This document shows, piece by piece, positions 17,857 through 59,489 of a stretch of 64,000 nt of DNA. A program made the position numbers and the translations under genes. The notes below the pieces were generated by a model. That model searched no databases. It had not been told where the DNA came from and saw nothing but the letters and a program-made list of their open reading frames with translations. Source of the DNA: a phage. Numbering within the stretch: the stretch's first letter is position 1; every line of letters starts with the position of its first letter. The stretch lies in assembly GCA_012549035.1 (NCBI GenBank), contig GCA_012549035.1_4805.1. One strand, given 5' to 3'.

Positions 17857-17968
17857 CCACCCTCAAATAAGTATTGTGTATTATATCTAATGAAAAAAAC
17901 TTAGGCAAACAATAATTATGGTTTGAATATGTATAACAACCGATATAGCCGCGCCTTTATTAGTGTGA

Positions 17969-18193
17969 TACGGATGATACGGATAAAATGAGGCGTATTT
18001 TTATCCGTATCGGTGTATAAGCCGCGCTATCACTGGTGTGCTACGGATGATACGGATGATACGGATACTTTTCATATATAAGAGTTTATAAAAAAAAATA
18101 AAATTAAATTATATATATAATTTTAAATTAATTTATTTGAATTCCTATATAGTACGGCGGCAACGCGTATCATCCGTATCATCCGTAAGATTC
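17969..18193. repeat. Iteron cluster R1 (GATACGGAT-type 9-bp units) flanking extreme AT-rich tract
   Basis: GATACGGATGATACGGATA (x2), inverted TATCCGTATC, CTACGGATGATACGGATGATACGGATAC (x3), AT-rich 18075-18150, then 29-bp GCGTATCATCCGTATCATCCGTAAGATTC (18165-18193) identical to 34419-34447. Confidence 0.6.
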
Positions 18194-18273
18194 TTTTGAA
18201 AACAATAACTTACTTGATACGTATGATACGTCATTATACGTATAAAACTCGCGGCAATCCTTTGCCGATGAAT

Positions 18274-19349: not shown

Positions 19350-20201
19350 TCAAATGATTGGTATTTTTCTGCACTTGCAGTGTATTGCCCATCCAGGAGG
19401 ACCGATGTCACCCTTTTTGAACTTCAATTCGCCGCCAACTTCCCATAGGCGCTTGTCATCAAGTTTGAATCTCATTCCGTCGACGTGTTCATGAGAGATT
19501 CGCGGCTCCTTTCCTGCTCCTGAGTGCGCCCACTCAAATTCTTCGACTCCATTCTGGCGCATCCTTTCATCGCTTAGAACGCAATACAATTTGCTTGTCT
19601 GGTCTTTAGCGATCAAGTCGACTCTCTTTGCAGAGAAGTGTTTTACGTTTCGCAATGCCGCCTGAATGCCTGACGTGCCTTGCTGGGCTGGGTCGGGAGA
19701 AGTCAGCGAAAGCATGACTGCTTCGTACACTCTGTTGTGAATATCCTCGCCGACCTTAGTCACTAGAGTCGTGTTAAACTTCTCGCTTGTTCTAAGAGTG
19801 TTCTCAACGAATTTGTTATATGTGGCCTTTGGCGCTTCTATGCCTGCGGACTTAAGGCTTGCGAATGTAGCAGAAGTGGCACCCTTTTCGACCGATTTGA
19901 TAAAATCAGCGGCAATCTTCGACCCAACACGTGCAAACGCCTTTGCCCATTTCAGTTGCAGCCGTTTCATAAGGGTCTGGAATGTCGAATCAGCAGAGTC
20001 TTGCGCAAAAAACTTCTGCACCTGCTTCTTGTCAAGCCATTCTGAAATGCCTGCCTGATAGTCATCAATCATCGCATAGCAAAGACCTTTCATCTCACGA
20101 CGATAGGCCATCGCGATTGCGTTGGATGGGATTATCGGACTGCCGCGCCCGACTCTATCGGGTAAGCGGCGTTCACGTTTTTTCGAAGCTTTAAAAGCCA
20201 T
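19350..20201 (-). CDS. Head morphogenesis protein (Mu F / SPP1 gp7-like)
   Basis: C-terminal HVDG...PPGWAIHCKCRKIPII resembles conserved MuF-family motif; directly downstream of portal; ATG at 20201. Confidence 0.6.
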   Translation of the reverse strand: MAFKASKKRERRLPDRVGRGSPIIPSNAIAMAYRREMKGLCYAMIDDYQAGISEWLDKKQVQKFFAQDSADSTFQTLMKRLQLKWAKAFARVGSKIAADFIKSVEKGATSATFASLKSAGIEAPKATYNKFVENTLRTSEKFNTTLVTKVGEDIHNRVYEAVMLSLTSPDPAQQGTSGIQAALRNVKHFSAKRVDLIAKDQTSKLYCVLSDERMRQNGVEEFEWAHSGAGKEPRISHEHVDGMRFKLDDKRLWEVGGELKFKKGDIGPPGWAIHCKCRKIPII

Positions 20202-20202
20202 A

Positions 20203-22578
20203 TCAACCTTGCTTCGGTGAATTAGTAGGATTGTTGAGTGCTCCATATGCTTGAGAGCAATCACCCTTCAACCACTCCTTGAATGAGTTTACATCCAATT
20301 CGTGGATTGAGTCAAATCCATTCCAACCGTTACCAAATGATGCTTGATAAGCTTCTTTCGCTTCTTCTGCTGAATCGAATCCAAGCATACATTTGTGTTC
20401 ATCAAACTCGCCAGAGTAGTTATCGTTTTGGTTCACGATAAAAACTTTCGGTGACTTCAGATTTGGACCCACAAAGCAGTCGACTTCATCGCCGTCCGCG
20501 CCCTTGGTGCCCTTGATGAATCCGTAGTGGTGCGGCATCTTGACTGCCCATTCACCGTCAAGGCTGTTTCCTCTACGGATGCTGTTGCGAGGATTCTCAA
20601 TCCCAAGAATCAGTCCATGCAACTTCATCTTAGGTAATGATGCTGCGTCCATCTTTCCAACGTTGTGTCGTAAGTTTACGACATTACCTTTGACGCTTGG
20701 AAGGGTAGACGGTTGCACCGACCGTGAATCTTTTTGAGGGTCAAAATCCACATCCTGACCTTCTTTCAGGTAGTAATCCGCAATACCCTCCAGACCTTCT
20801 TTCAACTGCGTTAGGACATCAACCTGATGGCTTGATTCGTCATCGGTATCGTCCATGTTGATTTCAACAGGTGCTCTGTCAGGGTTTTCCGCCAACTCAC
20901 CACGCGCGGCACCCTCTGGCATAATACCTGTTTCGCTATAGAACTGGCCGCCCATCTTAACGACATCAGCTTTCGCCTGTTCAATATCGGCCTTACCTTG
21001 CAAGACTTCACCAGCAGACTTGCCAAGCAATGCCATATTCTCTGGAGACATCCCTGGGGTTTCTTCTGCTGCGTCTTCCGGCAGACGGTTGTAGCCGCTG
21101 TTTTTGTCGTCTTTGATGCGGTCGCGCTCTTCATCAGGAGAAATGACGCCAGCATCAATAAGAGTTTTGCCAGTGTTGGCTCGCTTATCATTGATTTCTG
21201 CAAGTTGAGTAGCAGTAAGTGAGCCAACTGGTTCCCATGCAACCTTAACATCGACATCCACCCCTTCTGATTTGAGAAGGATTTTGTAATGGCGGTCGAG
21301 AATTTTTGTCAGGTCATGCTGCTGGCACGTTTCCAACTCTTCGTGATAGCTGACCATCTCGAATTCACCAGTGGCATTAAAGCCTTTTGGCGAAGTCCCA
21401 AGCAGTTTGGTCGACGGAACTTTTGCGATTGCGGCCACCAGCTGGTACTGGTTCATGATGATGCTGTCGAAGTCTGACAAGTTGATGTCGAACTGGTCCA
21501 TCTCTTCTTTTTGGCCAAGCACTTTGACTGCATAGTTGTCGCGATACTTGATCCACATCATCAGACGTTCTGCAAAAGACCGCTCATTGGCAATCGCCTT
21601 GTCAACGTCGGTCCGCAGCGTGGTTGTACGCTTGGACATCGCCAGCAATGGCGCTTCGTTAGCGGTACGTTCAGCGGCATAGATGCGTTCATAAATCTGC
21701 TGAGTCAGAGGAATGCCGCCGTAAATATAAGTTGGCTTGAGAATATCAGCTGGCTCATCATTGCGCAAGATGATGAGGTGACTGCGATGATAACGTTGTC
21801 CGCTGATCACCCAGTATTCTGGATCATAGAAGTGCTGTGATGCAGGGTCTGCGGTATTTTCAGACGTCAAAAATGGCATCATCCAATAAGGGTCAACCTG
21901 AATGATTCCCTTGTAAGACCCCTTTGTCACACCATCAATGTTAAAAGGCTTGCTGTAATATTCTGGGTCATCGCTACGCACATCAAATATGATGACGCGG
22001 ATACCAAAAATATTTTTGAATCGTTCGGCTTCAACTAAGTGCTCTTTGATATTAAATTCTTTATCAATTTGCTTTAGGCGTTCGCTTGCCTGCACTGACA
22101 ATTCTGACTCAGAACTGGATTTGACTTCCCAACCTTTACGGACCGCATCGCGGCCTACCATGGAACACGCCTTGTTCACCAGCCAATGCTGTGCGATGAT
22201 GGCACAAGCTTGATAGCCGATGAATGACTGTGACAAATACCAGTTTTGAAGTTGAATAGGTACTGTGTATGGGTTGACCTGCCCTTCTGAACTGATGTTC
22301 TTCAAGGCATTATCCATAACTTTTTTGGATACTGTTGCGGAATCGACTGAACGACCTTTTATGATAGCAACACCGTCGCCATTAATATCAGGCTCATATA
22401 AAGGGAAGTCATCAACCGTTTTAAAGGTCGGTCGATTGCTTTCAGTCTTTTCCCAGCGTTGACCGCTGCCGCGCCTTTCAAGGCGTTCAAACGGTGCCAA
22501 TGGGTCGCCTGGCGGCATCTCCGCTGGTTCGGCTTCTGGTTGCGTCTTCTCCCAGAGTTTTATGCCAAGAATTTTCAT
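20203..22578 (-). CDS. Portal protein with C-terminal inorganic-pyrophosphatase-like extension
   Basis: About 790-aa ORF between terminase and MuF genes; AGGTGG SD before ATG at 22578; C-terminal HHYGFIKGTKGADGDEVDCFVG fits family I PPase signature D-[SGDN]-D-[PE]-[LIVMF]-D-[LIVMGAC]. Confidence 0.6.
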   Translation of the reverse strand: MKILGIKLWEKTQPEAEPAEMPPGDPLAPFERLERRGSGQRWEKTESNRPTFKTVDDFPLYEPDINGDGVAIIKGRSVDSATVSKKVMDNALKNISSEGQVNPYTVPIQLQNWYLSQSFIGYQACAIIAQHWLVNKACSMVGRDAVRKGWEVKSSSESELSVQASERLKQIDKEFNIKEHLVEAERFKNIFGIRVIIFDVRSDDPEYYSKPFNIDGVTKGSYKGIIQVDPYWMMPFLTSENTADPASQHFYDPEYWVISGQRYHRSHLIILRNDEPADILKPTYIYGGIPLTQQIYERIYAAERTANEAPLLAMSKRTTTLRTDVDKAIANERSFAERLMMWIKYRDNYAVKVLGQKEEMDQFDINLSDFDSIIMNQYQLVAAIAKVPSTKLLGTSPKGFNATGEFEMVSYHEELETCQQHDLTKILDRHYKILLKSEGVDVDVKVAWEPVGSLTATQLAEINDKRANTGKTLIDAGVISPDEERDRIKDDKNSGYNRLPEDAAEETPGMSPENMALLGKSAGEVLQGKADIEQAKADVVKMGGQFYSETGIMPEGAARGELAENPDRAPVEINMDDTDDESSHQVDVLTQLKEGLEGIADYYLKEGQDVDFDPQKDSRSVQPSTLPSVKGNVVNLRHNVGKMDAASLPKMKLHGLILGIENPRNSIRRGNSLDGEWAVKMPHHYGFIKGTKGADGDEVDCFVGPNLKSPKVFIVNQNDNYSGEFDEHKCMLGFDSAEEAKEAYQASFGNGWNGFDSIHELDVNSFKEWLKGDCSQAYGALNNPTNSPKQG

Positions 22579-23396: not shown

Positions 23397-24857
23397 TTAA
23401 AGGTTAGAGAAGAAGCCGGATGCTGCAACAATTGGTTTCATCAATGCCATGATTGCGGCGTCCGCTTTGTTAGGCGATTTAACTCCACGCTTTGCCATAT
23501 CCTTTTTCGATTCAACTTTGAACTTACCAAGAACAGACGTGTCTTTGCGCGGCGCTGACATCTCAAAAAGAAACGTCTCAATTTCTTCCGCAGACCAAGC
23601 AGGAATCCCAAGTTCTGGAATGCCGTCTGTGTCGATGGAAATCAACTCATCGGTCGGATATACGGCTTGCCCTGTCGCATACTCATATGTCTTTCTGAAT
23701 CGTTCGGCAATCTCAGTCCATTTTTGCGCTTTTATGTTTGCGAAATGGTCTTTATTGAGTATTTCAACGTGTGGTAACTCAAGGAAAACGTCATCAGGAT
23801 CATCAACAGCACCTTGCGCGTTGAACGCATTAAATTCGATTCTTGGGAATGTTGGATTTTCATGTATTGCATACTCATTGAGCTCATCAAATTTTGAACC
23901 AGCAAATGCACCGACACCGATGGCGTCATAGGTAATTGACGCGCCGAATGTCAATGCGTCTTTCCAAACTCCGCTTGCGGACTTAAGCAATTCATCTTCC
24001 AGACCTTCCCATGTCTTGATGCCACGTAATACGTTGCCTGTGACGAATGCAGTGGCGTTAAGGTCGTCGCCATCGTCCGCTACGTCAAAGCCTATACGGT
24101 TAGACCCTGACAAACTCCATCCCAGCGTAGGGTGCTTGTGGAGGTTAAGCGCAGCCTTAACGAATGCGCGGTTGATTACAGATTTGTCGCCGCCAGTCTT
24201 CGGCACGCCGCCATAAACGTGCTCTGCCTTTTTCGGGTCACGCTCGTACATGCCTGCAATAACGTCCAGCATTGTTTGCGACAAAAATGGATTGTCTTGC
24301 CAGTTTATCTTTTTAACAATGGCATTCTTCGGCGGTCGCATAACAAAGTTTTGGTAGACGAAATCGGCCTCTTCATCAGGGTTAAAGATGATCCATATTT
24401 CGGACCCTTCTTTACGGATTGTCGGCTCAATAATGTCCCACTGTTCTTCAGTAAGCGCGTGCGCTTCTTCCAGCCAAAGGACGTCAACACCTTCTGTTGA
24501 TTTAATTTCATCAACGTTACGTGCGATACCGTAAAATAGAAATTCAGATTTAGTTCTTTTATGTTCAATAGAGTTCTTTAATAAATTGAACTCATCTTTG
24601 AAATCAGAAATCTCTATTTTGTCTTTTAATAGAGTATATACAGATTCAGAAATCTTGTTCTGGAATTGTCGAACGCAAAGGAATTTTAATTTGAAGTTTG
24701 CCGCCAAATAAATAGCAAAACCAGCGGCATCGTGCGATTTGGAAGATGCACGACCGCCGTATATTACTTTGTATCGCGCTTTTGTCTTCCAGACTTCTTT
24801 TAAAGCAGGATTCAACTGGTACATGACTTTCCAATTATGTGTTAATATTTTATTCAT
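23397..24857 (-). CDS. terL: Terminase large subunit
   Basis: 486-aa ORF; Walker A-like YGGRASSKS near N-terminus; acidic nuclease-like C-terminal half; adjacent to portal. Confidence 0.8.
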   Translation of the reverse strand: MNKILTHNWKVMYQLNPALKEVWKTKARYKVIYGGRASSKSHDAAGFAIYLAANFKLKFLCVRQFQNKISESVYTLLKDKIEISDFKDEFNLLKNSIEHKRTKSEFLFYGIARNVDEIKSTEGVDVLWLEEAHALTEEQWDIIEPTIRKEGSEIWIIFNPDEEADFVYQNFVMRPPKNAIVKKINWQDNPFLSQTMLDVIAGMYERDPKKAEHVYGGVPKTGGDKSVINRAFVKAALNLHKHPTLGWSLSGSNRIGFDVADDGDDLNATAFVTGNVLRGIKTWEGLEDELLKSASGVWKDALTFGASITYDAIGVGAFAGSKFDELNEYAIHENPTFPRIEFNAFNAQGAVDDPDDVFLELPHVEILNKDHFANIKAQKWTEIAERFRKTYEYATGQAVYPTDELISIDTDGIPELGIPAWSAEEIETFLFEMSAPRKDTSVLGKFKVESKKDMAKRGVKSPNKADAAIMALMKPIVAASGFFSNL

Positions 24858-30677: not shown

Positions 30678-30893
30678 GCCTGCCGCGCAGGAGTGTACTG
30701 CAAAATTCCTGTGGGTACAAAATAGTACGGTACTGTCTAGGGCTTTTTCTTTGAAAAGTTAGTGGACCAAATGTGTCGTATTTTGATTAGTGTACCGCAA
30801 ATTTCATCAAGTACCAAAACGCACCAAAAGACCCATGCCATAAAAACCACACGAACGCAATAATCAATCGCCGTTACAGTTTCCAGCGTTACA

Positions 30894-30956
30894 ATTCGAA
30901 AGCGAATGATTCGACGCATAATAATATGAAGCACAATGATTCGAAAGCGAATGATT
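30894..30956. repeat. Direct repeat TTCGAAAGCGAATGATT x2 (46-bp spacing) in untranslated gap
   Basis: Identical 17-mers at 30894-30910 and 30940-30956; each contains cgaat-N-attcg inverted motif. Confidence 0.6.
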
Positions 30957-31274
30957 GTGTGTAGGATAATATCGGTGGGGATTATTCGAGATGCATGTAA
31001 TTTCGCATGCGTACTATTTTCGGGCGAAGGGTCGGCATATTCCTCGTTTTAGTTCGGAACGAAGGGAAAGTTTTGCGCCTTTATAAAACAACGACTTACG
31101 CGACCCGCCCTAACGGTCCGATATAGGTGTCTATATAAAACAAGGACTTACTCGATGTTCTCCATTTAACGTAATACCTGTTATGCGAACTAAGGCGCAT
31201 CTCGATGAAGATTATGCGACGAAGAAGGGAAGGATAAAGGAGTTTTTTGCGGAGAAGCGCATCGAGATAGGGAC

Positions 31275-31300
31275 GAAGAAAAGCCGCGACTAAGCGCGGC
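31275..31300 (-). terminator. Intrinsic terminator closing minus-strand island operon
   Basis: On minus strand GCCGCG-CTTAGT-CGCGGC followed by TTTTCTTC. Confidence 0.5.
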
Positions 31301-31326
31301 CTATTAGTAACGGTGGGTGATTATAA

Positions 31327-31536
31327 TTAAAGGAATAATCCGGCGCGTTTAATTTGCCCAAGGACGTTATCGCGACGGCGACGCATAACCGCGTATTTAA
31401 CTTCTTCTTCGTATCCCCAGCCGCCGATGGATAACATCGCGTTCATATTATCGCATAATTCCTTAAGCTCGCGAAACATATCGATTACGGCGGTGCGATG
31501 GGCGCGCGCGTTAAGAGAGTTATTCATATTAGTCAT
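31327..31536 (-). CDS. Hypothetical protein (CpG-rich island)
   Basis: 69-aa ORF with AAGGAG SD; CpG-rich codon usage unlike flanking genes. Confidence 0.5.
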   Translation of the reverse strand: MTNMNNSLNARAHRTAVIDMFRELKELCDNMNAMLSIGGWGYEEEVKYAVMRRRRDNVLGQIKRAGLFL

Positions 31537-31546
31537 TTTCTTCTCC

Positions 31547-31837
31547 TTAAAGGCTTACGATTTTAAAGTAAGTTACTTCGCCGCCGAGTTGCGGTACAGC
31601 GATATATTCGCCGCCGATTTCGGTGATCGTATAAACGAATCCGTTAATCGTTACGCGGTAGGATACGATGTCCTCGTCGCGATACTTGTAAAGGTCGAGG
31701 AAGTTGATCGGCTCATAAATAGACTCGATAATCGCGTCGACGTTAGAGAGATAAACGCTCTCTAAGGTTTCGCCAAATACGTTAGAGTTTTCGGAAGTTT
31801 CGACGCGAGCGGCGCGGATAGCGGATAAAGTAATCAT
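31547..31837 (-). CDS. Hypothetical protein (island; paralog of 31944..32246)
   Basis: 96 aa; AGGAGA SD; preceded by conserved promoter/5'UTR cassette A. Confidence 0.55.
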   Translation of the reverse strand: MITLSAIRAARVETSENSNVFGETLESVYLSNVDAIIESIYEPINFLDLYKYRDEDIVSYRVTINGFVYTITEIGGEYIAVPQLGGEVTYFKIVSL

Positions 31838-31940
31838 AATATTCTCCTAGTTAGTCGGGAGGGTAGCGACCTATTCGCTACCTCATCCCCTCTCGATATA
31901 AAACATTATAGCCTTAGTGTACGAATAAGTAAAGCACTTT
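31838..31940 (-). promoter_or_regulatory. Promoter + 5'UTR cassette A (sigma70-like -35 TTTACT / -10 TATAAT, UTR hairpin)
   Basis: Minus-strand TTTACTTATTCGTACACTAAGGCTATAATGTTTTATATCGAG; UTR hairpin ggtagcg...cgctacc; homologous to cassettes B and C. Confidence 0.5.
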
Positions 31941-31943
31941 TCG

Positions 31944-32246
31944 TTATTTTGCGATAAAATATTTGTAAGCCTTATCGCCTTCTACGTCGATATACTCGAC
32001 GATAATTAATGCTTCGCCGCGCGGCGTAACCGTCTCGATAAGGGTAACGGCTTCGTCGTCGGTCTTCGCGAAGCGGATGGCGCTACGTTCGGCGTACTTG
32101 ATATCGTCGAAGGAAAGACCGACGAAGGCGACCGCGCGGACCTTAATGGCGCTAGATTCTAGTTCGGCGTTAACGGCGGCGATAAGAGAGCGAACGGTTA
32201 AACGGTCTTCGTCGTAAGTAAGGATGGAAGAGATTAAAGTGGTCAT
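31944..32246 (-). CDS. Hypothetical protein (island; paralog of 31547..31837)
   Basis: Start at MTTLISS (ATG 32246) after GGGAG SD; about 100 aa; track N-terminal extension lies in promoter cassette. Confidence 0.5.
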   Translation of the reverse strand: MTTLISSILTYDEDRLTVRSLIAAVNAELESSAIKVRAVAFVGLSFDDIKYAERSAIRFAKTDDEAVTLIETVTPRGEALIIVEYIDVEGDKAYKYFIAK

Positions 32247-32336
32247 AATAAAACTCCCGATGCTAGTGGAAGGAAGGGCCATCGCCCGTCTCGATATAAA
32301 CAAGTATACGTGAGTGTACGAAGAAGTAAAGAAAAA
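32247..32336 (-). promoter_or_regulatory. Promoter + 5'UTR cassette B
   Basis: Minus-strand TTTACTTCTTCGTACACTCACGTATACTTGTTTATATCGAG; same architecture as cassette A. Confidence 0.5.
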
Positions 32337-32371
32337 GATAAATAATTTATCTCATTTTTATCGAAAAAGTG

Positions 32372-32469
32372 CTTTACTTTTTTCTACACTATATTATAAT
32401 GTACTCATATCGGGACGGGATGAGTTGACGAATAGGTCGTTAACACTGCTCCCAAACTAGGAGTTTATT
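32372..32469 (+). promoter_or_regulatory. Promoter + 5'UTR cassette C (inverted copy of cassette A)
   Basis: Plus-strand TTTACTTTTTCTACACTATATTATAATGTACTCATATCGGG then GGGATGAGTTGACGAATAGGTCG...ACTAGGAG; divergent from cassette B. Confidence 0.5.
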
Positions 32470-33108
32470 ATGGCCAGTTTGAATCGTTTCTCCACCAGCG
32501 GCGACGTAATCGCAACCAAGACAGCCGACCTCGTTGCATTCTATAACGAAAATTCAGGCTCAAAGCCGATTAAAAAATTCGCGGACCGCCGGACCGCCGA
32601 GACTCGCGTAATCGCGTTAATCGAGTCCTTAAACGCGCTCGATGAGCCGTCCAACGAATCGCCCATCCCAGACGTGAAGGCGCGTGAGGAAGTGTCCAGC
32701 GATGTAAAAACGCATAAGGCGCGTGCGGTCGTTAAAAAGGCTGAGCCGACCCAGGAAGAACTCGACGCGATGAGTGATGAAGAGTATGAAGCCTTCGTTA
32801 AGAGCAGCCTTAATAGCGCTCCGGTTGGCGCTCCGGTTGGCGCGGATAAAATTGCCAGCCCTTCCCATCGCCGTTCGAATAGCGAAGGTATTGCAAAAAG
32901 TTGGGATAACAAGGAAGTGGCGCAAAAGCGTCTCACCCGTAACGGCGTTATGGTCGAGGGTGTAGGCGAGTTCAAATCGGTCCGCGTAGCGTTCGCCGCG
33001 CTGGGATTACCGGATAGCAAGCACATTCGCTTCCGCATGAAGCTTAAAGAAGCTGGACGCTTGAACTTCGAGTTCGGCAACAAGTCCTACACCTTCCAGA
33101 TTATCTAA
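32470..33108 (+). CDS. Hypothetical protein (island)
   Basis: 212-aa ORF, CpG-rich codons; driven by cassette C. Confidence 0.55.
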   Translation: MASLNRFSTSGDVIATKTADLVAFYNENSGSKPIKKFADRRTAETRVIALIESLNALDEPSNESPIPDVKAREEVSSDVKTHKARAVVKKAEPTQEELDAMSDEEYEAFVKSSLNSAPVGAPVGADKIASPSHRRSNSEGIAKSWDNKEVAQKRLTRNGVMVEGVGEFKSVRVAFAALGLPDSKHIRFRMKLKEAGRLNFEFGNKSYTFQII

Positions 33109-33115
33109 TCGAATG

Positions 33116-33137
33116 GCGGCCCTTCGGGGTCGCTTTT
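33116..33137 (+). terminator. Intrinsic terminator (UUCG tetraloop hairpin + T-run)
   Basis: gcggccc-ttcg-gggtcgc followed by tttt. Confidence 0.55.
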
Positions 33138-33158
33138 CATAGTGCAAATTGGTGGCTT

Positions 33159-33422
33159 ATGAATACGCTTATTCTCATCGCTACGTTGTCCATCGGAAGT
33201 GGTCGCACCTTATCCCTTTATGATCATAGTGCAAATTGCGCTTACCCAACGCGCGTTGCGGCGATAGTTAATAGTGCAAATCGAATGCTATTCGAGACTT
33301 GTTGGCGGGTCGATAACGAGAAAGGGCGCATCGTCTTAGGTTATAGTGCAAATCTGCTGGTGGAGTCGTTCGACTGGACGGCGGAAGGTCGTAAATTGTT
33401 ACGTAAAGTGACTAAAAGATGA
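33159..33422 (+). CDS. Questionable small ORF encoding SAN tripeptide repeats
   Basis: 87-aa ORF; GGTGG SD; three in-frame motif copies give H/N/Y-S-A-N; nucleotide-level conservation suggests the DNA motif is the selected feature. Confidence 0.25.
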   Translation: MNTLILIATLSIGSGRTLSLYDHSANCAYPTRVAAIVNSANRMLFETCWRVDNEKGRIVLGYSANLLVESFDWTAEGRKLLRKVTKR

Positions 33423-33536
33423 CTTATAATAATACACTTTCTAACGCGTTTATGGCTGCAGCCTTCCCCGTCGTATTACCGATGGCCCTAGAAGTGGAGA
33501 AAATGTGTTCTAGGGCCGTTTTATAGTGCAAATTGG

Positions 33537-34010
33537 CTAGTGGCGGGAGAATTGCTCACCCTCTTTGGCCGCCTCTCCAAAATCCTTGTAGAAATCGTCC
33601 ATGGAACGGCCCATTTTACTATTGCCATTCTCATCAATCATCGTGATGCCGTAGATGATATTCAGTTCACGAATGGCATTAAGCTTGGCTGATGCCGCGA
33701 CTTCTGGATCACGCACAAGCTTCACTAAATTGTGAATGGAACTCTTTACACTCCACAATTCCTTCAATGGCATCTCTTCCATACGCTTTTTGTAGCGCAT
33801 CTTGTAGTACGGATTGCGTTGCGTGCAGAGGATTCGCTGGCCAGTGTAGTTATCGGTCGCAACCTCCATGCCAAATACTAGTGCAAAAGCTGCGCGCATG
33901 TCATGGCCCTGAATAACAAGGTCAATGAACTCATCGAATAATGCCTGATTATGCTCTGCAAATCGCGGGTCTTCAAAGTCTTCAGGCATTGCTACATAAT
34001 CTTGACTCAT
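33537..34010 (-). CDS. terS: Terminase small subunit-like protein (putative)
   Basis: About 157 aa from ATG 34010 (MSQDYVAMPEDFEDPRFAEHNQALFDEFIDLV...); N-terminal HTH-like segment and ..AKLNAIRELN.. recall Terminase_2-type small subunits by memory; track N-terminal extension rejected. Confidence 0.45.
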   Translation of the reverse strand: MSQDYVAMPEDFEDPRFAEHNQALFDEFIDLVIQGHDMRAAFALVFGMEVATDNYTGQRILCTQRNPYYKMRYKKRMEEMPLKELWSVKSSIHNLVKLVRDPEVAASAKLNAIRELNIIYGITMIDENGNSKMGRSMDDFYKDFGEAAKEGEQFSRH

Positions 34011-34062
34011 AGTGCAAATCCCATAGTGCAAATTAATAGTGTGAATTATACAATGATTGAAC

Positions 34063-34091
34063 ATTATATTCAAGTGCAGATTGATGTTCAA
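34063..34091 (-). promoter_or_regulatory. Sigma70-like promoter for terS-like gene
   Basis: Minus-strand TTGAAC, 17-nt spacer, TATAAT; 5'UTR carries the tandem ATTTGCACTAT motifs. Confidence 0.45.
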
Positions 34092-34237
34092 ATTGGCTGT
34101 AAACGTACATAAATCATAGTGCTGAATGAATATCGGACCGTGGTGCGTGGTGTACTGTTTGATACGTATAAAAGAAATCCATCCCTTTCGCCGCTTGTTA
34201 TGCAAATCAATGACTTAGCCGCTGCTGGCTGGTTGAA

Positions 34238-34513
34238 GCGTATCATGACGTATCATCCGTATTGCCGCAAGTCTTTGTTTTTACTTATATCTTACGGATA
34301 ATACGTTAAATATATAAATTAACATAAGTATGAGGATGTAGAAAAAAATTAATTTAAATTAATTCAAAATGGAGTTAATTAATTTTTGAAATAATTCTGG
34401 TTACAATAAGGAAAAATGGCGTATCATCCGTATCATCCGTAAGATTCAGTGTACAAATCCAGGCGCGGCGCACCCTAGCGCCATGATACGGATAAAAACC
34501 TATCCGTAAGAGT
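34238..34513. repeat. Iteron cluster R2 (GATACGGAT / ATCCGTATC 9-bp units) flanking AT-rich tract
   Basis: GTATCATGACGTATCATCCGTAT, TTACGGATAATACG, 29-bp GCGTATCATCCGTATCATCCGTAAGATTC (34419-34447), inverted pair TACGGATA-N6-TATCCGTA; AT-rich block 34305-34410. Confidence 0.6.
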
Positions 34514-34741
34514 GTACGCTTCAAGCAAAGAATCCAGGCGCGGCGCGGCTTTCGCCACCACACACCACGGTTCACTCTCCAAAATCCGCACACTAAATTC
34601 CAAAATCCAATGCTCATACTCCAAAAATAAATCAAAATTTCCATTTTATTTATTATTTTCATCCACAATATCCTAAATTCTATCCGTATCAACCATGCCT
34701 CAACCCACCACTATTCACGCCACTCACTTCAAAATTTCCAT

Positions 34742-34772
34742 CGAAAACAACAAAAGGTCGCATAAAGCGACC
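34742..34772 (-). terminator. Intrinsic terminator ending minus-strand early operon
   Basis: Minus-strand GGTCGC-TTTAT-GCGACC followed by TTTTGTTGTTTTCG. Confidence 0.55.
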
Positions 34773-34824
34773 CATTGCACACATTCCATTATTCAAAACA
34801 CGTAAACGAGTGTTCTTTTATCCA

Positions 34825-35364: not shown

Positions 35365-35783
35365 CCCTCCTTAACGACCCGATAAGCAACAATCTTTGCG
35401 CCAGTCGGGCTTGCCACTGCACCCCAGTTCAAATTATCCGAAGGGACGGCCTCTTTTGATTTATAACCGTTGAGTAATTCAAACATGACCATCTTCCCAG
35501 GCACCGGATTATCGCCACCAAACCACACGGTCCACGCTTCTTCCTTTTGTGCGACAGTCTTCTTGCTTTGTTCGATGATGTCACTAAAATTCTTCACTAC
35601 CAGCTCAGCGGCTTTGATGCACTCGTGGTATTGTTCAATCTCTTTTGTTAGAGAATCATTAAGCTTGAGTAGTGATTCATAGTCCTCATATGCAACAAAA
35701 CGTCCTTCGTGACTTTCTGGAACAGGAGTGATGTCGAAATCTTCTGTCGCCACATCGTATGTCAGATCATAACGTTGTATCAT
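35361..35783 (-). CDS. Hypothetical protein sharing C-terminal domain with 36934..37434
   Basis: C-terminal WTVWFGGDNPVPGK...AYRVVKEG parallels WIEWAGGENPVPGK...AYRVVEE. Confidence 0.5.
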   Translation of the reverse strand: MIQRYDLTYDVATEDFDITPVPESHEGRFVAYEDYESLLKLNDSLTKEIEQYHECIKAAELVVKNFSDIIEQSKKTVAQKEEAWTVWFGGDNPVPGKMVMFELLNGYKSKEAVPSDNLNWGAVASPTGAKIVAYRVVKEG

Positions 35784-36934: not shown

Positions 36935-37434
36935 TATTCCTCCACGACGCGATAAGCGATGATGTCATCGCCGCTTCCAACGTGCTTCCATCTTACTGAT
37001 TGTGAGCCGTAACACCCGACGGACTTTATCCCGCTTCTCATTTTGTACTTGATAATCTTCCCAGGCACCGGATTCTCGCCTCCAGCCCATTCAATCCAAC
37101 CTTCATGAGACTCTTCGGACTTCTTCAATTGCTCATGCTTCTCACCAATGTGGGCAATTGGTTGGTTGCTGTTGTAAAAGAATCCAAGCGCAACATCGTA
37201 GCACGGATGACTATGAGAAAGACAGATGTCATCACACCAAAGCTCCATGGTGCGCGACTTAAGCGTCATGATATTGGTATACCACTCGATGGTGTAGTGG
37301 TCGTTAAGGTTGCCGACGATGTAGAAGTTGCGACAAAAGTGCGAAGCATCGTCAGACTTCTCGCGGCGATAGCTTTTGATTGCGCCAGCCTTTACAGCCA
37401 TTTCCAGTACTGCTTCGAGTTGTTTGATTTTCAT
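36934..37434 (-). CDS. Hypothetical protein (paralogous C-terminal domain)
   Basis: 166 aa; see 35361..35783. Confidence 0.5.
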   Translation of the reverse strand: MKIKQLEAVLEMAVKAGAIKSYRREKSDDASHFCRNFYIVGNLNDHYTIEWYTNIMTLKSRTMELWCDDICLSHSHPCYDVALGFFYNSNQPIAHIGEKHEQLKKSEESHEGWIEWAGGENPVPGKIIKYKMRSGIKSVGCYGSQSVRWKHVGSGDDIIAYRVVEE

Positions 37435-38153: not shown

Positions 38154-38201
38154 AGTATAATACAGGCAAATAAAAAGGCAAGCATCTAGCTCACCTTTTT
38201 G
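38154..38201 (-). promoter_or_regulatory. Terminator-promoter cassette, copy 1
   Basis: Hairpin aggcaagc/gcttgcct with flanking A/T runs; minus-strand TTGCCT, 16-nt spacer, TATACT; about 60 bp near-identical to copy at 39414-39461. Confidence 0.45.
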
Positions 38202-38203
38202 AA

Positions 38204-39413: not shown

Positions 39414-39461
39414 AGTATAAGTATTGATAAAAGAAAAGGCAAGCATTTAGCTCACCTTTTT
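39414..39461 (-). promoter_or_regulatory. Terminator-promoter cassette, copy 2
   Basis: Same hairpin and -35/-10 arrangement as 38154-38201. Confidence 0.45.
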
Positions 39462-39466
39462 GATAT

Positions 39467-41957: not shown

Positions 41958-42605
41958 TTATCCTGTGGCCTGCATATTGCGTACATACTTCTGCTCTAAT
42001 GAATAGATGAAGTCGGCGACAGTCAATCCCTTCGTGTGCCATTCATACATGGTGAAGCCTGTATTCAGGAAATAGCCGCGCACCTTGTCCATCGCTTCAG
42101 CTTCCTCCATTGAAGCCATCAGCGCGGCGACGTTGTCATAAGAAGGCACAAATCCCTTCTTGCGTAGCGCATTGCGCAAATCTTTAGTTCTGAAGCCAAT
42201 CTTGCAAGGGTCATCGCGGCCCGTGGATGATGCAACCTTTGGAAGAGCAAGGAACTCTTTGAGGAACATTGCAATGTTCAAGTCGCCTGCATCATCAAGC
42301 TTCTGGATTCGGTTGCGACCGCGACCCTTGAATTCACTCGCACGAGGGTGAGCGCCAAAACAGTGCGCCCCTTCCAGTTTAGGGTCAATGATCATCACAT
42401 CTTTCCCAATGCGCAGCTCTACGTAGTAAAGATAAGACTCATCGACAAGCTTTGTGCGCTTGCAAGTGATTGAGTCCTTATCATAACCAAAGCCGCGCAA
42501 CACGGTTGAGATCATTCGGTTCATTTCTTCGCCGTGAACGTCACTTTCTTTGTTCAGTTCACCAAGATGTTGAAAGAATTTAGCGATGTTGATTGCTTTA
42601 TTCAT
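41958..42605 (-). CDS. Hypothetical protein
   Basis: 215-aa ORF overlapping primase-helicase stop. Confidence 0.55.
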   Translation of the reverse strand: MNKAINIAKFFQHLGELNKESDVHGEEMNRMISTVLRGFGYDKDSITCKRTKLVDESYLYYVELRIGKDVMIIDPKLEGAHCFGAHPRASEFKGRGRNRIQKLDDAGDLNIAMFLKEFLALPKVASSTGRDDPCKIGFRTKDLRNALRKKGFVPSYDNVAALMASMEEAEAMDKVRGYFLNTGFTMYEWHTKGLTVADFIYSLEQKYVRNMQATG

Positions 42606-44275
42606 CAGAATTCATCCTTATCTCTTCCCAAAGAACGTTTACGCTCAATAACCTTCTTCAAGAATTCAATATCTTCAGGGTCAGACTCATCGCGGATAAG
42701 ATACGCTAAGATGGTCATCAAATCAGAAATGTATTCTCCTGCTTCATTCTTAATCAGCGGCGTAAAGTACCCGCGCTGGTTGCGATAGGTTGCAGGCTCA
42801 AAACCAAGCTTCGACATGTGCGGCGCAAGGGTACGAGAGAAAGGCGACTTGCCACACTTCGCTCTGAATCCCATAGCAATAGCGCCACTGGTGATGTGCC
42901 AGCGTCCGCTGTGATGTCGGTCATAAGGCGCGGTGATGACGACTTCAACAAGGTCGTTGTCGACCATCTCATCACGGATAACGCCGCGCGCACGTTCCAT
43001 TTCGTTCTTGCTGAACTCAGTAAGCATGCGAGATGTTTCACCAACAAACGCGTTATAGCCTGCTTCGCCGTGCTTCTCCATCCACGCAGCGCACTCAGCC
43101 ATAAGCTGCCAAACGTCTTCTTTCAAAGTGGAAAGGTCGGCTTGGAAGTCCTTAGACCAGTTCGGTTGCCCGTCCTTGTCAGCGAGTTGGCCAACAAAGA
43201 TAGGGTACACACGACGGTTGCCCGTGTCGTCACGCTGCATGCCTGCGTATTCGTTGCCGTCCATGATCGCAATCCACTGGCGTGGTTTAACCTGCGTATC
43301 TTCAAATTTGAAGTCCAGGTCATCTTCCGTCTTAGTCAGGAATGCTTTCATGTTTTCGATGTCGGCCTTTTTAAAGCCTGTCATCTCGCCAACGTTCGCG
43401 ATAATTGAGCGACCCGTGATAGCTCGCAAGAACGGGTTGAAGTTTTGCGCGGCTAAGTTCAACGGAATCGGTGTTGCGTGGCGGTCGTTCATAATAGCTT
43501 CGCAAAGCAGCTTGCTAAAATAACTCTTCCCTGCGTTCTGGCCGCCGATGAGCGCAATGGAGATTGGCGCTTGACAGCCAGGGTTGGTCAGGCGGTTGTA
43601 GAGCGATAGCCAAAAATACACACCGATTTGTCGGTTTAACTCTGTATCGAACGGTCGGAATAGCTCGATAAGGTATTTCTCGATGCGCGCAGTACCGTCC
43701 CATTCAGGCAGCTTCTTGTAGAAGAAGTCCATCAGGTCGTCGCGCTGATAACGCATGGCCCATTCCTTATAGGATTGAGCGACCTGACGTGAGTTTGGGT
43801 TGGACAACCCTGCTGCGTCGACAGCGGCAACTATCTCTGTGACTTCCAAGGTACGGTCAGTGAATGTTTCGCCGCGATGGTCGACTAAGCGCCCACGAAA
43901 AGTATCTTTGTGAGGGAATGGAACAACGCCACTTCCCTTATCAAACAACGCGTCGAACACCGCATAACGGTTCATGTCACTCGTCCGGTCTGCCTGTAGA
44001 ACGAAGTCATCTTTAGTCGGCTTGTAGTGAGGGAACTTGATTACCTGAAGTGAGGCGAGCAAGCGTGCTCTTTCAACCAAGTCTTCTTCACCGTAGCATT
44101 CCATGCGCTCTGAATCTTTTTCAACGGCTTTATGTTGAAGGCTGATTTTAGCTCTGGTGCCTTGCTGCTCTGCTGCCTGCATTTCTTCCGAAACACCTGC
44201 ATCTTGAATTTCGTCAAAGATTGCACCAAATTCATCACCTGTATCCTCTGGAAGATTGTCATTATTAATTGACAT
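42605..44275 (-). CDS. SF3 primase-helicase (D5 / P4 alpha C-terminal type, putative)
   Basis: 556 aa; Walker A GGQNAGKSYFSKLL; acidic N-terminus; size and motifs fit phage/plasmid primase-associated SF3 helicases. Confidence 0.6.
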   Translation of the reverse strand: MSINNDNLPEDTGDEFGAIFDEIQDAGVSEEMQAAEQQGTRAKISLQHKAVEKDSERMECYGEEDLVERARLLASLQVIKFPHYKPTKDDFVLQADRTSDMNRYAVFDALFDKGSGVVPFPHKDTFRGRLVDHRGETFTDRTLEVTEIVAAVDAAGLSNPNSRQVAQSYKEWAMRYQRDDLMDFFYKKLPEWDGTARIEKYLIELFRPFDTELNRQIGVYFWLSLYNRLTNPGCQAPISIALIGGQNAGKSYFSKLLCEAIMNDRHATPIPLNLAAQNFNPFLRAITGRSIIANVGEMTGFKKADIENMKAFLTKTEDDLDFKFEDTQVKPRQWIAIMDGNEYAGMQRDDTGNRRVYPIFVGQLADKDGQPNWSKDFQADLSTLKEDVWQLMAECAAWMEKHGEAGYNAFVGETSRMLTEFSKNEMERARGVIRDEMVDNDLVEVVITAPYDRHHSGRWHITSGAIAMGFRAKCGKSPFSRTLAPHMSKLGFEPATYRNQRGYFTPLIKNEAGEYISDLMTILAYLIRDESDPEDIEFLKKVIERKRSLGRDKDEF

Positions 44276-48493: not shown

Positions 48494-49339
48494 GTGAATA
48501 TGGCCGAAGCAATCAAAGTATTATCTAAAGAAGAAAAACAAGCAGCCGCAGCAGAACGTCGTCGCGTGGCTGAAGAAAAACGCCTGGCTAAAAAGAAAGA
48601 AGCCGAAGAGAAACGCCAGAAGCGTGAGCAGGAAAAACAAGCCAAGCGTGAAGAAGCTGCGCTGAAACGCAAGCAGGCTGCTGATGAGAAGGCTCAGAAG
48701 CGTGCTGAAGAAGCAGCTAAGAAAGCTAAAGAGCGTGCAGAAAAGGCTGCTGCTAAGAAAGCAGAGCGTGAAGCCGCTAAAGCAGCAAAAGAAATCGAAA
48801 AGGCAAAGGCTAAAGAAGAAGCCAAGCGCCTGAAAGCTGAGCAGGCTGCGGCCAAGAAAGCAGAGCGTGATCAAGCCCGTGCTGCAGCGAAGGCCGAAAA
48901 AGAGAAGGCCAAAGAAGAAGCTAAAGCGAAACGCAAGGCAGAGCGTGAAGCTGCTAAGATTGCGGCGAAAGAAGCTGCAGAACAGCAGAAAGAACAGCGT
49001 AAGAAAGAAGCTGAAGAACGTCGCAAAGCCATCGCAGAACGTAAGGCTGCTAAAAAGGCAAACGGTCAGCGTCGTGCAAAAGCCACTCACTTCATCTACA
49101 CTGGCAATGGCCTGAGCCAGCCGCAAGAGCATTCCACTCGTGGACGCGTTCTGGCGGCGATCAAAGAAGGCGAAGTTGGCGTGGCGCAGTCTATCGATGA
49201 GCTGGGCGAAAAAGTTAAAGATCAACTGTTTGGCGCTTCCGTTCGCTCCTACCTGAGCAAGCTGGAAGAGATGGGCCACATCGAGTTTGTCGATGTTGAA
49301 TCCAACGACGATGCTGAAGACGGTGATCAAGCGGAATAA
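48494..49339 (+). CDS. Lys/Ala/Glu-rich low-complexity protein with globular C-terminal domain (histone H1 / TolA-like)
   Basis: About 190 aa of KAKE/AAKK repeats followed by non-repetitive 90-aa C-terminus. Confidence 0.55.
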   Translation: MNMAEAIKVLSKEEKQAAAAERRRVAEEKRLAKKKEAEEKRQKREQEKQAKREEAALKRKQAADEKAQKRAEEAAKKAKERAEKAAAKKAEREAAKAAKEIEKAKAKEEAKRLKAEQAAAKKAERDQARAAAKAEKEKAKEEAKAKRKAEREAAKIAAKEAAEQQKEQRKKEAEERRKAIAERKAAKKANGQRRAKATHFIYTGNGLSQPQEHSTRGRVLAAIKEGEVGVAQSIDELGEKVKDQLFGASVRSYLSKLEEMGHIEFVDVESNDDAEDGDQAE

Positions 49340-57969: not shown

Positions 57970-59489
57970 AAACACAAGGAATGCGCCACCAATTATTGGC
58001 GCTTGATAAAGCAGGCCGCAGAAAATACTTTGCTTATTTCATGGAGCAGGGTCTTGGTAAAACCTGGACTGCTTTGGCAGAGTTTGAAAAGCATTTCACC
58101 GCTGGCGCATTTGACGCCATGGTTGTCATCGCTCCTAATGGTGTACACTCAAACTGGATTCGTCGTGAAGCGCCAGAGCACCTTTCCATCAAGTGGATTG
58201 GGCATTACTGGCGCGGCAATGACAAGATGAAAACTAAAAAGGGCAAAGCAATTTGGGAGAAGATGTTTGCTGATCACTATCCTGAAGGTGAAGTGCCTGC
58301 GCGCATCTTCTCATTCAACATTGACACGGTGAATACGCCAGTCGGTTATCAACACATTGAGTCCGTACTGAAGAAGTACCGCTGTTTGATGATCATTGAT
58401 GAATCGACGCGTATCAAAAATAACACAGCCAAGCGTTCCATCAAGGTTGTGGAATTGGGACGGCTGGCAAAGGCCCGTCGAATCCTTTCCGGTACGCCGC
58501 TGCCGCGCTCGCCTGCTGATATTTACATGCAGTATCACTTCCTTGAAGCTGGCTTGCTTGGCACCAAATCGTTCCGTGCATTCAATTCTGAATTCACGGT
58601 GCTGCTTGAAGCGCACGACCCAGAGATGCAGGCCATTCTCAAGAAAATCGGCGGCAACGGTTATGGCATTCCGCAAGTGCCGCGCAAAGACCAGTTTGGC
58701 CGACCGATGTATAAAAACCTTGACAAGCTTATCCGGCTGATGGAGCCGCACTATTTCCGCGCGACAAAAGCGGAATACCTGCCGGAACTTCCAGAGAAGG
58801 TGTACAAGTTTATCGACTTCGAGTTGTCGCCTAAGCAGCGCGATGTCTATGATGAACTCAAGAATGAGTACAACTATCTGATGGAGTATAAAGGCGAAGA
58901 AGAAAACGTTAAGTTTGAGATGATCGCATCTCGCACTAAGATGAAGCAGGTGACATCAGGCTTTGTTAAGGTGTATGATGAGATGGTCTACATGGAAGAT
59001 AACCCACGATTCACGGCCTTTAAGGACTATGTTGAAGGGGTGTTGGAAGATGACCCAGAGCGCAAATTCATTGTGTGGGCAATCTTTAAGGAAGAGATGA
59101 ACCAGATTAAGGATTGGCTTGAGTCTGAAGGCGTGGTCACTGGTGTGTACAACGGTGAAACGTCAAAAGAGCAGCGCGAGTTCTTGATTGATGACTTCCA
59201 GAAAAACACAGTCGAGAACGGTGGGACGCAAGTCTTAGTTTGTCACGCTGCAGCGGCAGGCATCGGAATCACGCTTACCGCCGCCGACTTGGCAATCTAT
59301 TATTCTTGCAACTATGACAACGAGTTGCGCAAGCAATCCGAAGACCGAAATCACCGCATCGGCACCAAATCAAGCGTGTTGTATGTTGATTTTATTGGGG
59401 TTGATACCATCGACGAAGAAATTCAGCGTTCATTGAGTATGAAGTCTATGCTTGCTGATCACATCCTCGACGGCAAAAAGATGAATTAA
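57966..59489 (+). CDS. SNF2-family (SF2) helicase
   Basis: Motif I GLGKT, motif II MIIDESTRIKN, C-terminal helicase motifs. Confidence 0.75.
   Translation: MKTQGMRHQLLALDKAGRRKYFAYFMEQGLGKTWTALAEFEKHFTAGAFDAMVVIAPNGVHSNWIRREAPEHLSIKWIGHYWRGNDKMKTKKGKAIWEKMFADHYPEGEVPARIFSFNIDTVNTPVGYQHIESVLKKYRCLMIIDESTRIKNNTAKRSIKVVELGRLAKARRILSGTPLPRSPADIYMQYHFLEAGLLGTKSFRAFNSEFTVLLEAHDPEMQAILKKIGGNGYGIPQVPRKDQFGRPMYKNLDKLIRLMEPHYFRATKAEYLPELPEKVYKFIDFELSPKQRDVYDELKNEYNYLMEYKGEEENVKFEMIASRTKMKQVTSGFVKVYDEMVYMEDNPRFTAFKDYVEGVLEDDPERKFIVWAIFKEEMNQIKDWLESEGVVTGVYNGETSKEQREFLIDDFQKNTVENGGTQVLVCHAAAAGIGITLTAADLAIYYSCNYDNELRKQSEDRNHRIGTKSSVLYVDFIGVDTIDEEIQRSLSMKSMLADHILDGKKMN

Follow-up and report, generated by a model that had tools for sequence, protein, structure and literature searches.

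The replication origins of the staphylococcal pathogenicity islands (SaPI), which work with the proteins Rep and Pri (Ubeda et al. 2007, 2012, as summarised in PMC9371898), have 6-12 short iterons located immediately downstream of rep around an AT-rich centre. At least two iterons stand on each side, pointing in opposite directions, and they are recognized by the winged helices of Rep, of which two hexamers probably load, on either side; the primase gene lies upstream (PMC9371898). The present work concerns two elements, R1 and R2, in a 64,000-nucleotide stretch of phage DNA (contig GCA_012549035.1_4805.1 of assembly GCA_012549035.1, hereafter "the window"), which an earlier inspection of the letters alone (the sequence-only reading) had proposed to be dual origins or a shared regulator-binding module. 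The reading favoured here, which is judged slightly likelier to be true than false, takes R1 and R2 to be twin bidirectional origins of the SaPI-Rep type, with R2 serving in addition as the start of packaging and as the left boundary of the terminal repeat. It is favoured because the phage encodes a SaPI-Rep-like helicase with a winged helix, because the cis-acting layout is that of a SaPI origin, and because the pair of elements recurs in five genera. The first of the two earlier proposals is thus preferred, short of proof, and the second holds in a loose sense, since one phage-specific DNA-binding protein must read both copies.

Other described systems share parts of this arrangement. In satellite phage P4, ori and crr lie a few kb apart and carry the same 8-bp repeats, which are read by the C-terminal winged helix of the alpha protein. 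P4 resembles the present phage in having two separate cis elements with shared short repeats, which in P4 are read by the winged helix of a primase-helicase, but crr does not amount to a second, complete ori, and P4, which uses cos, has no link to a packaging site. At the concatemer junction of T7 the terminal repeat is flanked by the short-repeat arrays SRL and SRR, with replication promoters at the ends; short-repeat arrays and origin-like elements at the boundary of a direct terminal repeat are common to both cases, but the T7 junction depends on promoters for T7 RNA polymerase and has neither iteron dyads nor homologous proteins. P1 pac and the pacL-pacC-pacR region of SPP1 have repeated motifs on both sides of a cut region of ~80-100 bp, next to or inside the small-terminase gene. 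Here too short motifs flank a central cut region beside that gene, but P1 and SPP1 have one copy of the site each, bound by unrelated proteins, whereas the present phage has a second copy which is not known to be cut. A further difference is that the small terminase subunit (TerS) of E217, which is related to the one studied here, showed no appreciable DNA binding in vitro (PMC9611059). In RSF1010, RepB' starts the two leading strands at two inverted ssi sites on complementary strands (PMC8567376). The present system shares with oriV of RSF1010 (ssiA and ssiB) a primase of the RepB' family and signals on complementary strands that mirror each other across the origin (PMC8567376), but no 40-nt ssi hairpins were identified here, and the type of helicase and initiator differs.

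The closest reports concern Pbunavirus, whose members package by the headful mechanism without a fixed terminal repeat (PMC12390725, PMC10913387). Position 59,376 of JG024, at which 36 of the 161 nanopore reads longer than 30 kb start, was proposed by its authors as the pac site (PMC10913387), and the genome end of Ab27 was defined by fixed read ends (PMC4482731). The two positions coincide at the C of CGATTGC, ~600 bp upstream of terS, and this is the homologous point of the Pbunavirus counterpart of R2. The iterons, the dyad and the second copy in front of the protease gene are undescribed in those reports. A literature search found no publication linking Pbunavirus with iterons, and the Wifcevirus and Pbunavirus papers that were consulted mention neither the iterons and their dyad nor a second copy or a connection to a Rep-type helicase. 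What is already known is the type of origin, the TerS of E217 and the putative pac position of JG024.

The R1 and R2 regions are 89-99% identical to those of Escherichia phages in the genus Wifcevirus (WFC, WFH, ECML-117, Ro157lw, Mansfield and Bas98-101), and the window is assigned by its sequence to this genus of virulent 68-kb E. coli myoviruses, which are distant relatives of the PB1-like Pseudomonas phages of the genus Pbunavirus (PMC11990801). R1 and R2 are two copies of one module, in which opposed blocks of 9-bp iterons enclose an AT-rich centre; R2 is referred to below as copy A and R1 as copy B. A copy of the module is a dyad of ~300-600 bp with a central AT tract of about 100-110 bp and with mirrored GCCGC/GCGGC and GTGGTG/CACCAC words in its outer parts. 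The core of the iteron is best given as CGTATCA/TGATACG with a period of 9 bp. Within the window, TATCATCCGTA with at most one mismatch occurs 11 times compared to an expected count of 0.68, and these occurrences are confined to R1 (seven, at 17969-18228) and R2 (four). ATCCGTA is found 22 times (4.85 expected), with eight occurrences at 17969-18187 and seven at 34255-34688, and TGATACG 23 times (6.55 expected). Arrays of period 9 are detected by Tandem Repeats Finder at 17966-17984, 18042-18066, 18166-18187, 18215-18243 and 34420-34441. The AT tracts of R1 and R2 are the most and the second most AT-rich 100-nt windows of the 64 kb, at 87% and 85% (the next such window reaches 80%, and the mean of the window is 54%), and no other AT tract flanked by iterons was found in the window.

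In R1, perfect inverted arms of 22 nt (18042-18063 and 18166-18187) are spaced 102 nt apart, with three units on one side (18042-18066) and two on the other (18166-18187) in addition to outer units, and the AT tract between them (18067-18165) is itself palindromic about 18114|18115. The whole element is conserved at about 98-100% across six Wifcevirus genomes. The inverted arms of R2 measure 17 nt and are spaced 123 nt apart, and they are one of several nested pairs of inverted repeats: 34137-34152/34556-34571, 34230-34242/34515-34527, 34289-34305/34429-34445 and 34140-34173/34678-34711. The sequence-only reading had recognized R2 as a real element but had drawn its limits, at 34238-34513, too narrowly, as the nested repeats span ~34130-34711. 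Its other structural claims hold: the AT-rich tract is present, as is the 9-bp unit family with the inverted pair TACGGATA-N6-TATCCGTA, and the 29-mer GCGTATCATCCGTATCATCCGTAAGATTC is indeed identical at 34419-34447 and at 18165-18193. The homology between R1 and R2 that it had asserted also extends beyond the 29-mer, over ~200 bp at 66-68% identity. This alignment can be made in either orientation because each element is a dyad, and in Wifcevirus the relative orientation of R1 and R2 is not assignable, since the direct and inverted alignments score alike (62 and 73); MTx, Pbunavirus and BcepF1 have their two copies in a clearly colinear arrangement.

Among six aligned Wifcevirus genomes, the terS-side iteron block of R2 (34239-34305), which is homologous in inverted orientation to 18166-18240 of R1, differs by at most one substitution in any of the five other phages. 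The distal double iteron is kept in all six, being intact in four and altered in WFC and Bas98, while the sequence around it is not conserved. Homology between Wifcevirus genomes breaks off ~15 bp past the genome end; from there on (34385-34800), R2's distal half and the genes that follow are mosaic in this genus, although the iterons persist, and the genome end is a recombination boundary.

The proposed reader of the iterons is the product of the gene at 42605-44275, which is annotated as "DNA primase" but which has the features of a VapE-like superfamily 3 (SF3) helicase. It matches PDB entry 7PDS with an E value of 4e-11 as a single sequence and 2.8e-23 as a profile, and 7PDS is SaPI1 Rep1, a self-loading helicase-initiator (PMC9371898). 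Its AlphaFold2 model has a pLDDT (predicted local distance difference test) score of 84.9, and the best Foldseek matches of this model are six chains of 7PDS ("PriRep1 with dsDNA"), with an E value of 3e-17 over ~480 columns. Towards the C terminus of this model, residues 436-504 follow the order H-b-H-H-b-b (helix, H; strand, b), which is that of a winged helix, so that a Rep-type SF3 helicase with a C-terminal winged helix, as in SaPI, is present. The winged helix is the most divergent part of the helicase, with 16-31% identity between genera compared to 54-56% for the ATPase. The putative DNA-binding N-terminus of TerS, in contrast, is 50% identical between genera with unrelated iterons, and is conserved as well as or better than the rest of that protein.

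The outer arms of the module carry a second kind of symmetry. All non-palindromic 5-mers were scanned for polarity in ten elements from the five genera, centred on the cut or on its homologue, and GCGGC ranked first of 105 as the most polar word, with 48 of 49 occurrences mirrored (p 1.8e-13) and all ten elements contributing; CACCA/ACCAC come next. On the plus strand in the orientation of the window, GCCGC stands to the left of the centre and GCGGC to the right. The enrichment of GCGGC is about 1.8-fold overall and ~2-fold per element, which is individually non-significant. Since the genes to either side of copy A share one direction of transcription, the polarity is not a coding-strand effect. 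A bidirectional origin requires signals that are mirrored on complementary strands, and by analogy with the RSF1010 ssi sites the GCGGC words may relate to priming by the RepB'-like primase encoded upstream of the helicase gene.

The lineage comparison covered Wifcevirus and four further genera. In Kyle (Kylevirus, Pantoea; iteron GGTTATT), copy A lies across the junction before the terminal repeat, 356 bp upstream of terS, and copy B within a 515-bp gap ahead of the head maturation protease gene, the two copies being ~80% alike around the cut point. Copy A contains the PhageTerm-defined base 1 of MTx (Myosmarvirus, Serratia; iteron CACTTTTC) and the read-defined end of Ab27 (Pbunavirus; iteron GGTAATTTG), and copy B precedes the protease gene in both. 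In BcepF1 (Bcepfunavirus, Burkholderia; iteron TAGTTA) the helicase gene, copy A and terS are adjacent in this order, as in Pbunavirus, and copy B, located before the prohead protease gene, is 72% identical to copy A over 172 bp (E 5e-21). The terS homologue of BcepF1 (20082-20486, minus strand) is unannotated, the record having three small plus-strand open reading frames (ORFs; 058-060) over the locus. In Pbunavirus (Ab27/JG024), MTx and BcepF1 the helicase gene is followed immediately downstream by copy A, while in Wifcevirus and Kyle other genes are inserted between the two.

The positions of the pair are therefore constant in the five genera, copy A being upstream of terS and copy B upstream of the head maturation protease gene, and the pair is ancient in the lineage. 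The iterons themselves differ in every genus (TGATACGGA in Wifcevirus and the four given above). Local alignment scores between copies A and B of one genome range from 62 to 111 (z 14-36), whereas between genera they are at most 32, and the two copies of a genome evolve in concert. Since the copies are alike within a genome and different between genera, both must co-evolve with a phage-specific reader, and a conserved host factor such as DnaA would therefore be excluded. The possibility that the 9-mers TTATCCGTA/TCATCCGTA form a cluster of boxes which recruits host DnaA is accordingly considered extremely unlikely. Although the units recur every 9 bp and satisfy the most relaxed Schaefer-Messer consensus, the units T(T/C)ATCCGTA differ from TTATNCACA at positions 7-8, and the relatives from Pantoea, Serratia, Pseudomonas and Burkholderia have quite different iterons even though DnaA boxes are conserved among these hosts.

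The same comparison bears on the suggestion that the shared sequences belong to a longer dispersed repeat, such as the end of a transposon or an element resembling a MITE (miniature inverted-repeat transposable element), or are a chance repeat. The sequence-only reading had named a longer repeat of this kind as what would overturn its own proposal. A longer repeat does exist, and its two copies have inverted repeats, but there are just two of them, at fixed syntenic positions in five genera, and neither target duplications nor a transposase accompany them; in IMG/VR the exact double iteron is confined to Wifcevirus-type viral contigs; and the enrichment of the iterons is far above chance. This explanation is left with next to no probability.

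The sequence-only reading had not noted that the AT tract of R2 holds the left physical end of the genome. The cut, 34370|34371 (...TTAATTCAAAAT | GGAGTTAATT...), was placed in this isolate by homology to its relatives, about 3.5 bp away from the dyad centre of R2 (34367, for the dyad 34289-34305/34429-34445). The records of WFC, WFH, Ro157lw and SP13, which include both copies of the repeat, start at the base homologous to 34370, as does that of Mansfield, which was opened at a repeat boundary predicted by PhageTerm (PMC6753283). With these five Wifcevirus records and with Kyle, MTx, Ab27 and JG024, the virion end or packaging start falls within copy A, and sequencing reads underlie the positions for Mansfield, MTx, Ab27 and JG024. 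Packaging thus starts in copy A both in relatives that have a terminal repeat and in headful relatives. The Salmonella phage UALMA_PCSE1 record (PQ314491.1), in which the tblastn match to the helicase stops ~140 nt before the record end and the match to terS begins at 888, may also have been opened inside copy A. For R1, the starts of GenBank records were searched for an end but are uninformative, because they are mostly arbitrary or set at terL.

The direct terminal repeat, reported as ~3.7 kb in WFC and WFH (PMC6563267), is present as a single copy in this window. Its right boundary, CGCACCA|AAAGACCC (30826|30827), is given by Mansfield (PhageTerm), Ro157lw and SP13, and no iterons occur there. 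The WFC deposit is 79 nt longer and places the right end at 30748 instead of 30827, and one of the two sets of right ends is probably imprecise. A cluster of repeats lies 70-330 bp within the right boundary (30894-30972 and about 31075-31150), with ~4 copies of units of the ATTCGAAAGCGAATGATT type at a period of 15 and with TATAAAACAACGACTTACGCGA twice, and may hold the signals for the right-end cut.

The position of the cut introduces a serious rival, although an unlikely one, in which the iterons are binding sites for TerS around the cut and R2 is a packaging (pac or terminal-repeat-end) site only, R1 being an uncut second TerS site for the synapsis of two sites or for coupling the expression of head genes to packaging. 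Packaging sites of comparable layout are found in P1, where hexamers are arranged four and three around the cut, in SPP1, where pacL and pacR flank it, and in T4, where gp16 acts at genes 16 and 19 and synapsis of two sites has been proposed. In Wifcevirus, Kyle, MTx and Pbunavirus the genome end or packaging start falls in the copy A spacer, and in all five genera copy A stands directly upstream of terS (in the window 360 bp separate the cut from the terS start codon at 34010). This rival does not readily accommodate the second, near-identical copy with the same iterons, since a packaging site would be expected to be unique in the genome and only one end is known. The lack of appreciable DNA binding by E217 TerS in vitro (PMC9611059) and the conservation of the TerS N-terminal region, which is not hypervariable, across genera with unrelated iterons also count against it, and the dyad symmetry and mirrored polar words suit a bidirectional process, not a directional one. 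Finally, the Rep1-like initiator would be left with no recognizable origin, because the window holds no further AT tract flanked by iterons.

The closeness of the cut to the dyad centre, ~3.5 bp in R2 and about 5-15 bp in Kyle and Pbunavirus, also suggests a palindrome for end processing, in which a cruciform or hairpin is nicked or resolved at its centre to give the left end and synthesis that duplicates the repeat, with R1 as a relic or second site. A hairpin intermediate has been proposed at the concatemer junctions of T7, the inverted arms are long in both elements, and in Kyle a gene for endonuclease VII lies two genes (about 1.3 kb) upstream of copy A. This explanation is nevertheless judged very unlikely: a loop of 100-120 nt disfavours cruciform extrusion, the genus-specific iterons and the strict conservation of R1 go unexplained, and Pbunavirus shares the module and the cut point even though it packages by headful and has no terminal repeat to duplicate (PMC12390725, PMC10913387).

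Under the twin-origin reading, the C-terminal winged helix of the VapE/Rep1-like helicase would bind the iterons of both copies, one helicase hexamer would be loaded on each side, and the AT tract would melt. The RepB'-like primase would then initiate a leading strand on each of the two complementary strands, perhaps at the mirrored GCGGC arms, so that replication would begin at R1 and R2. The terminase, whose small subunit is encoded just downstream, would cut near the dyad centre of R2 to give the left virion end, and R1 would not be cut.

The layout corresponds to that of a SaPI origin in having two sets of iterons around an AT centre (opposed sets that are fully present in R1 and weaker on one side of R2), an SF3 winged-helix initiator homologous to Rep1, a separate primase gene and, in Pbunavirus, MTx and BcepF1, a location adjacent to and downstream of the helicase gene. 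It differs in belonging to a virulent 68-kb myovirus, in comprising two copies 16 kb apart at fixed positions, in having outer arms with mirrored GCGGC/CACCAC words, and in that one copy holds the packaging cut and the terminal-repeat boundary.

Several observations weigh against this reading. The iteron period of 9 bp exceeds the 5-6 bp of SaPI iterons. The origin is not immediately downstream of the helicase gene in the window, where ~8 kb separate 34711 from 42605, while copy A is next to terS in five of five genera, a linkage which therefore fits TerS at least as well as Rep. The terS side of R2 has a single degenerate unit by the AT tract (34289-34305; the unit itself is 34297-34305), compared to two units on the distal side (34420-34441), although two to three more units stand farther out at 34239-34262. 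The genome end is taken from relatives, and some GenBank starts may copy earlier records. GC skew is uninformative about an origin, since it simply tracks gene orientation. The model also does not account for the constant position of copy B before the head protease gene, nor for why a terminase would cut copy A yet spare the near-alike copy B.

A stronger form of the twin-origin reading, considered quite unlikely, would join the two functions: the terminase would cut the dyad centre of an origin which the helicase has opened or loaded, instead of a sequence recognized by TerS, and the origin and the packaging site would be one structure. A cut of this kind would explain why E217 TerS shows no DNA binding. 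Were this origin to fire across the neighbouring 3.5-3.7 kb, the terminal repeat would gain its second copy in Wifcevirus, Kylevirus and Myosmarvirus, and R1 would be spared through some other feature. If true, this coupling would tie the initiation of replication mechanically to genome maturation across the PB1-like lineage. Even apart from it, it is unusual for a packaging cut to coincide exactly with the centre of an origin-type dyad and for this to be conserved in several genera, which raises the question of a coupling between replication and packaging.

These results bear on phages of practical interest, since PB1-like Pbunavirus belong to the Pseudomonas phages that therapy uses most and Wifcevirus is known to grow very fast. 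The published reports on Pbunavirus genome ends contradict each other, and the packaging start described here is the same homologous point in relatives with a fixed repeat and in headful relatives; the analysis also offers an explanation for the appearance of this point. The analysis yields precise candidates that can be tested, namely two origins and the initiator domain that would read them, and it identifies cis elements to keep intact or to exploit when genomes are rebuilt or rebooted or when packaging and transduction vectors are made.

The surroundings of the two elements raise one further alternative. Each lies between a terminator-like hairpin and a near-consensus sigma70-type promoter, and comparable promoters follow both copies of Kyle and copy A of MTx on direct reading of the sequence, so that a phage protein bound to the iterons could activate, repress or insulate the promoters of terS and of the operon for the head protease, scaffold and capsid. 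Such transcription control is regarded as very improbable indeed, given that about 150-400 bp separate the iterons from the promoters downstream and that they enclose a 100-nt AT tract, an arrangement not typical of sigma70 regulation, and that the genome end, the dyad with its mirrored words and the origin layout of the helicase family would be left unexplained. The placement of both elements in front of late genes, on which the sequence-only reading had relied, is borne out: sigma70-like promoters found by consensus scan stand between R2 and terS, and the gene downstream of R1 is that of the head maturation protease.

The terS gene is the first gene within the terminal repeat and was recognized solely by a sequence search of the PDB, in which it matches 7UXE, the decameric TerS of Pseudomonas phage E217; its homologue is annotated as terS in Mansfield. 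Pfam and PHROGs were uninformative for the genes flanking R2 save for terminase and head genes, and an Rfam scan of the window returned zero RNA families. TerS homologues occur in about 359 phage records, and TerS and the VapE-like helicase are found in essentially the same ~350 records, so that a search for relatives having one but lacking the other gave no natural experiment by which to separate these two candidate binders. Two tandem copies of ATAGTGCAAAT cover the start codon and 5' leader of terS (34007-34041), and the sequence recurs just past the terS stop (33521-33543) and 180 bp further on (33341-33363); these repeats may be an operator or a translational control site around terS. The coordinates of the features are collected in Table 1.

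Table 1. Features of R1, R2 and associated genes in the 64,000-nucleotide window
Feature	Position	Strand	Details
R1 (copy B)	17947-18260		Between terminator (18252-18267) and promoter of the head maturation protease gene
terL, large terminase subunit	23397-24857	-	phrog_3717, 6.7e-75; about 9 kb from terS
Direct terminal repeat	30827-34370		3.5-3.7 kb; single copy in this assembly
terS, small terminase subunit, 157 aa	33537-34010	-	PDB 7UXE (E217 small terminase), phmmer E 9e-33
Sigma70-like promoters before terS	34045-34091	-	TTGAAC-17-TATAAT, TTGAAT-17-TATAAT; consensus scan only
R2 (copy A), full extent	34130-34711		Nested dyad-symmetric region; terminator of upstream minus-strand operon on one side, terS promoters on the other
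GCCGC words, left arm	34190-34268		GCCGC at 34190, 34218, 34264; GTGGTG at 34140, 34147
terS-side iteron block	34239-34305		CGTATCATGACGTATCATCCGTAT (34239-34262) and ATCTTACGGATAATACG (34289-34305)
AT-rich spacer, putative DNA-unwinding region	34306-34418		113 nt, 83% AT
Left physical virion DNA end	34370-34371		Left terminal-repeat boundary and packaging start
Distal iteron block	34419-34447		The 29-mer GCGTATCATCCGTATCATCCGTAAGATTC; inverted partner of 34289-34305
GCGGC words, right arm	34465-34549		Mirrors the left arm; GCGGC at 34465, 34540, 34545; CACCAC at 34556, 34563, 34706
Further iterons, inverted pair	34482-34508		TGATACGGATA-N6-TATCCGTA; pair TACGGATA-N6-TATCCGTA at 34486-34507
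Candidate initiator, VapE-like SF3 helicase, 556 aa	42605-44275	-	PF05272, 1.6e-28; annotated "DNA primase"
RepB'-like primase, 360 aa	45587-46669	-	PF16793 RepB_primase, 4.5e-36; upstream of helicase gene

Repeats of other kinds occur elsewhere in the window. The ORF at 48494-49339 (plus strand) encodes a repeat protein rich in lysine, alanine and glutamate, for which no Pfam match was obtained, and contains internal repeats of ~35 nt at multiples of 99 nt between 48737 and 49068. A 35-nt repeat with 91% identity is found at 38168-38202 and 39429-39463, in an operon of small minus-strand genes. Another, of 58 nt and 78% identity, lies inside two small minus-strand ORFs (35483-35540 and 37047-37104), which suggests that these two are paralogous genes.

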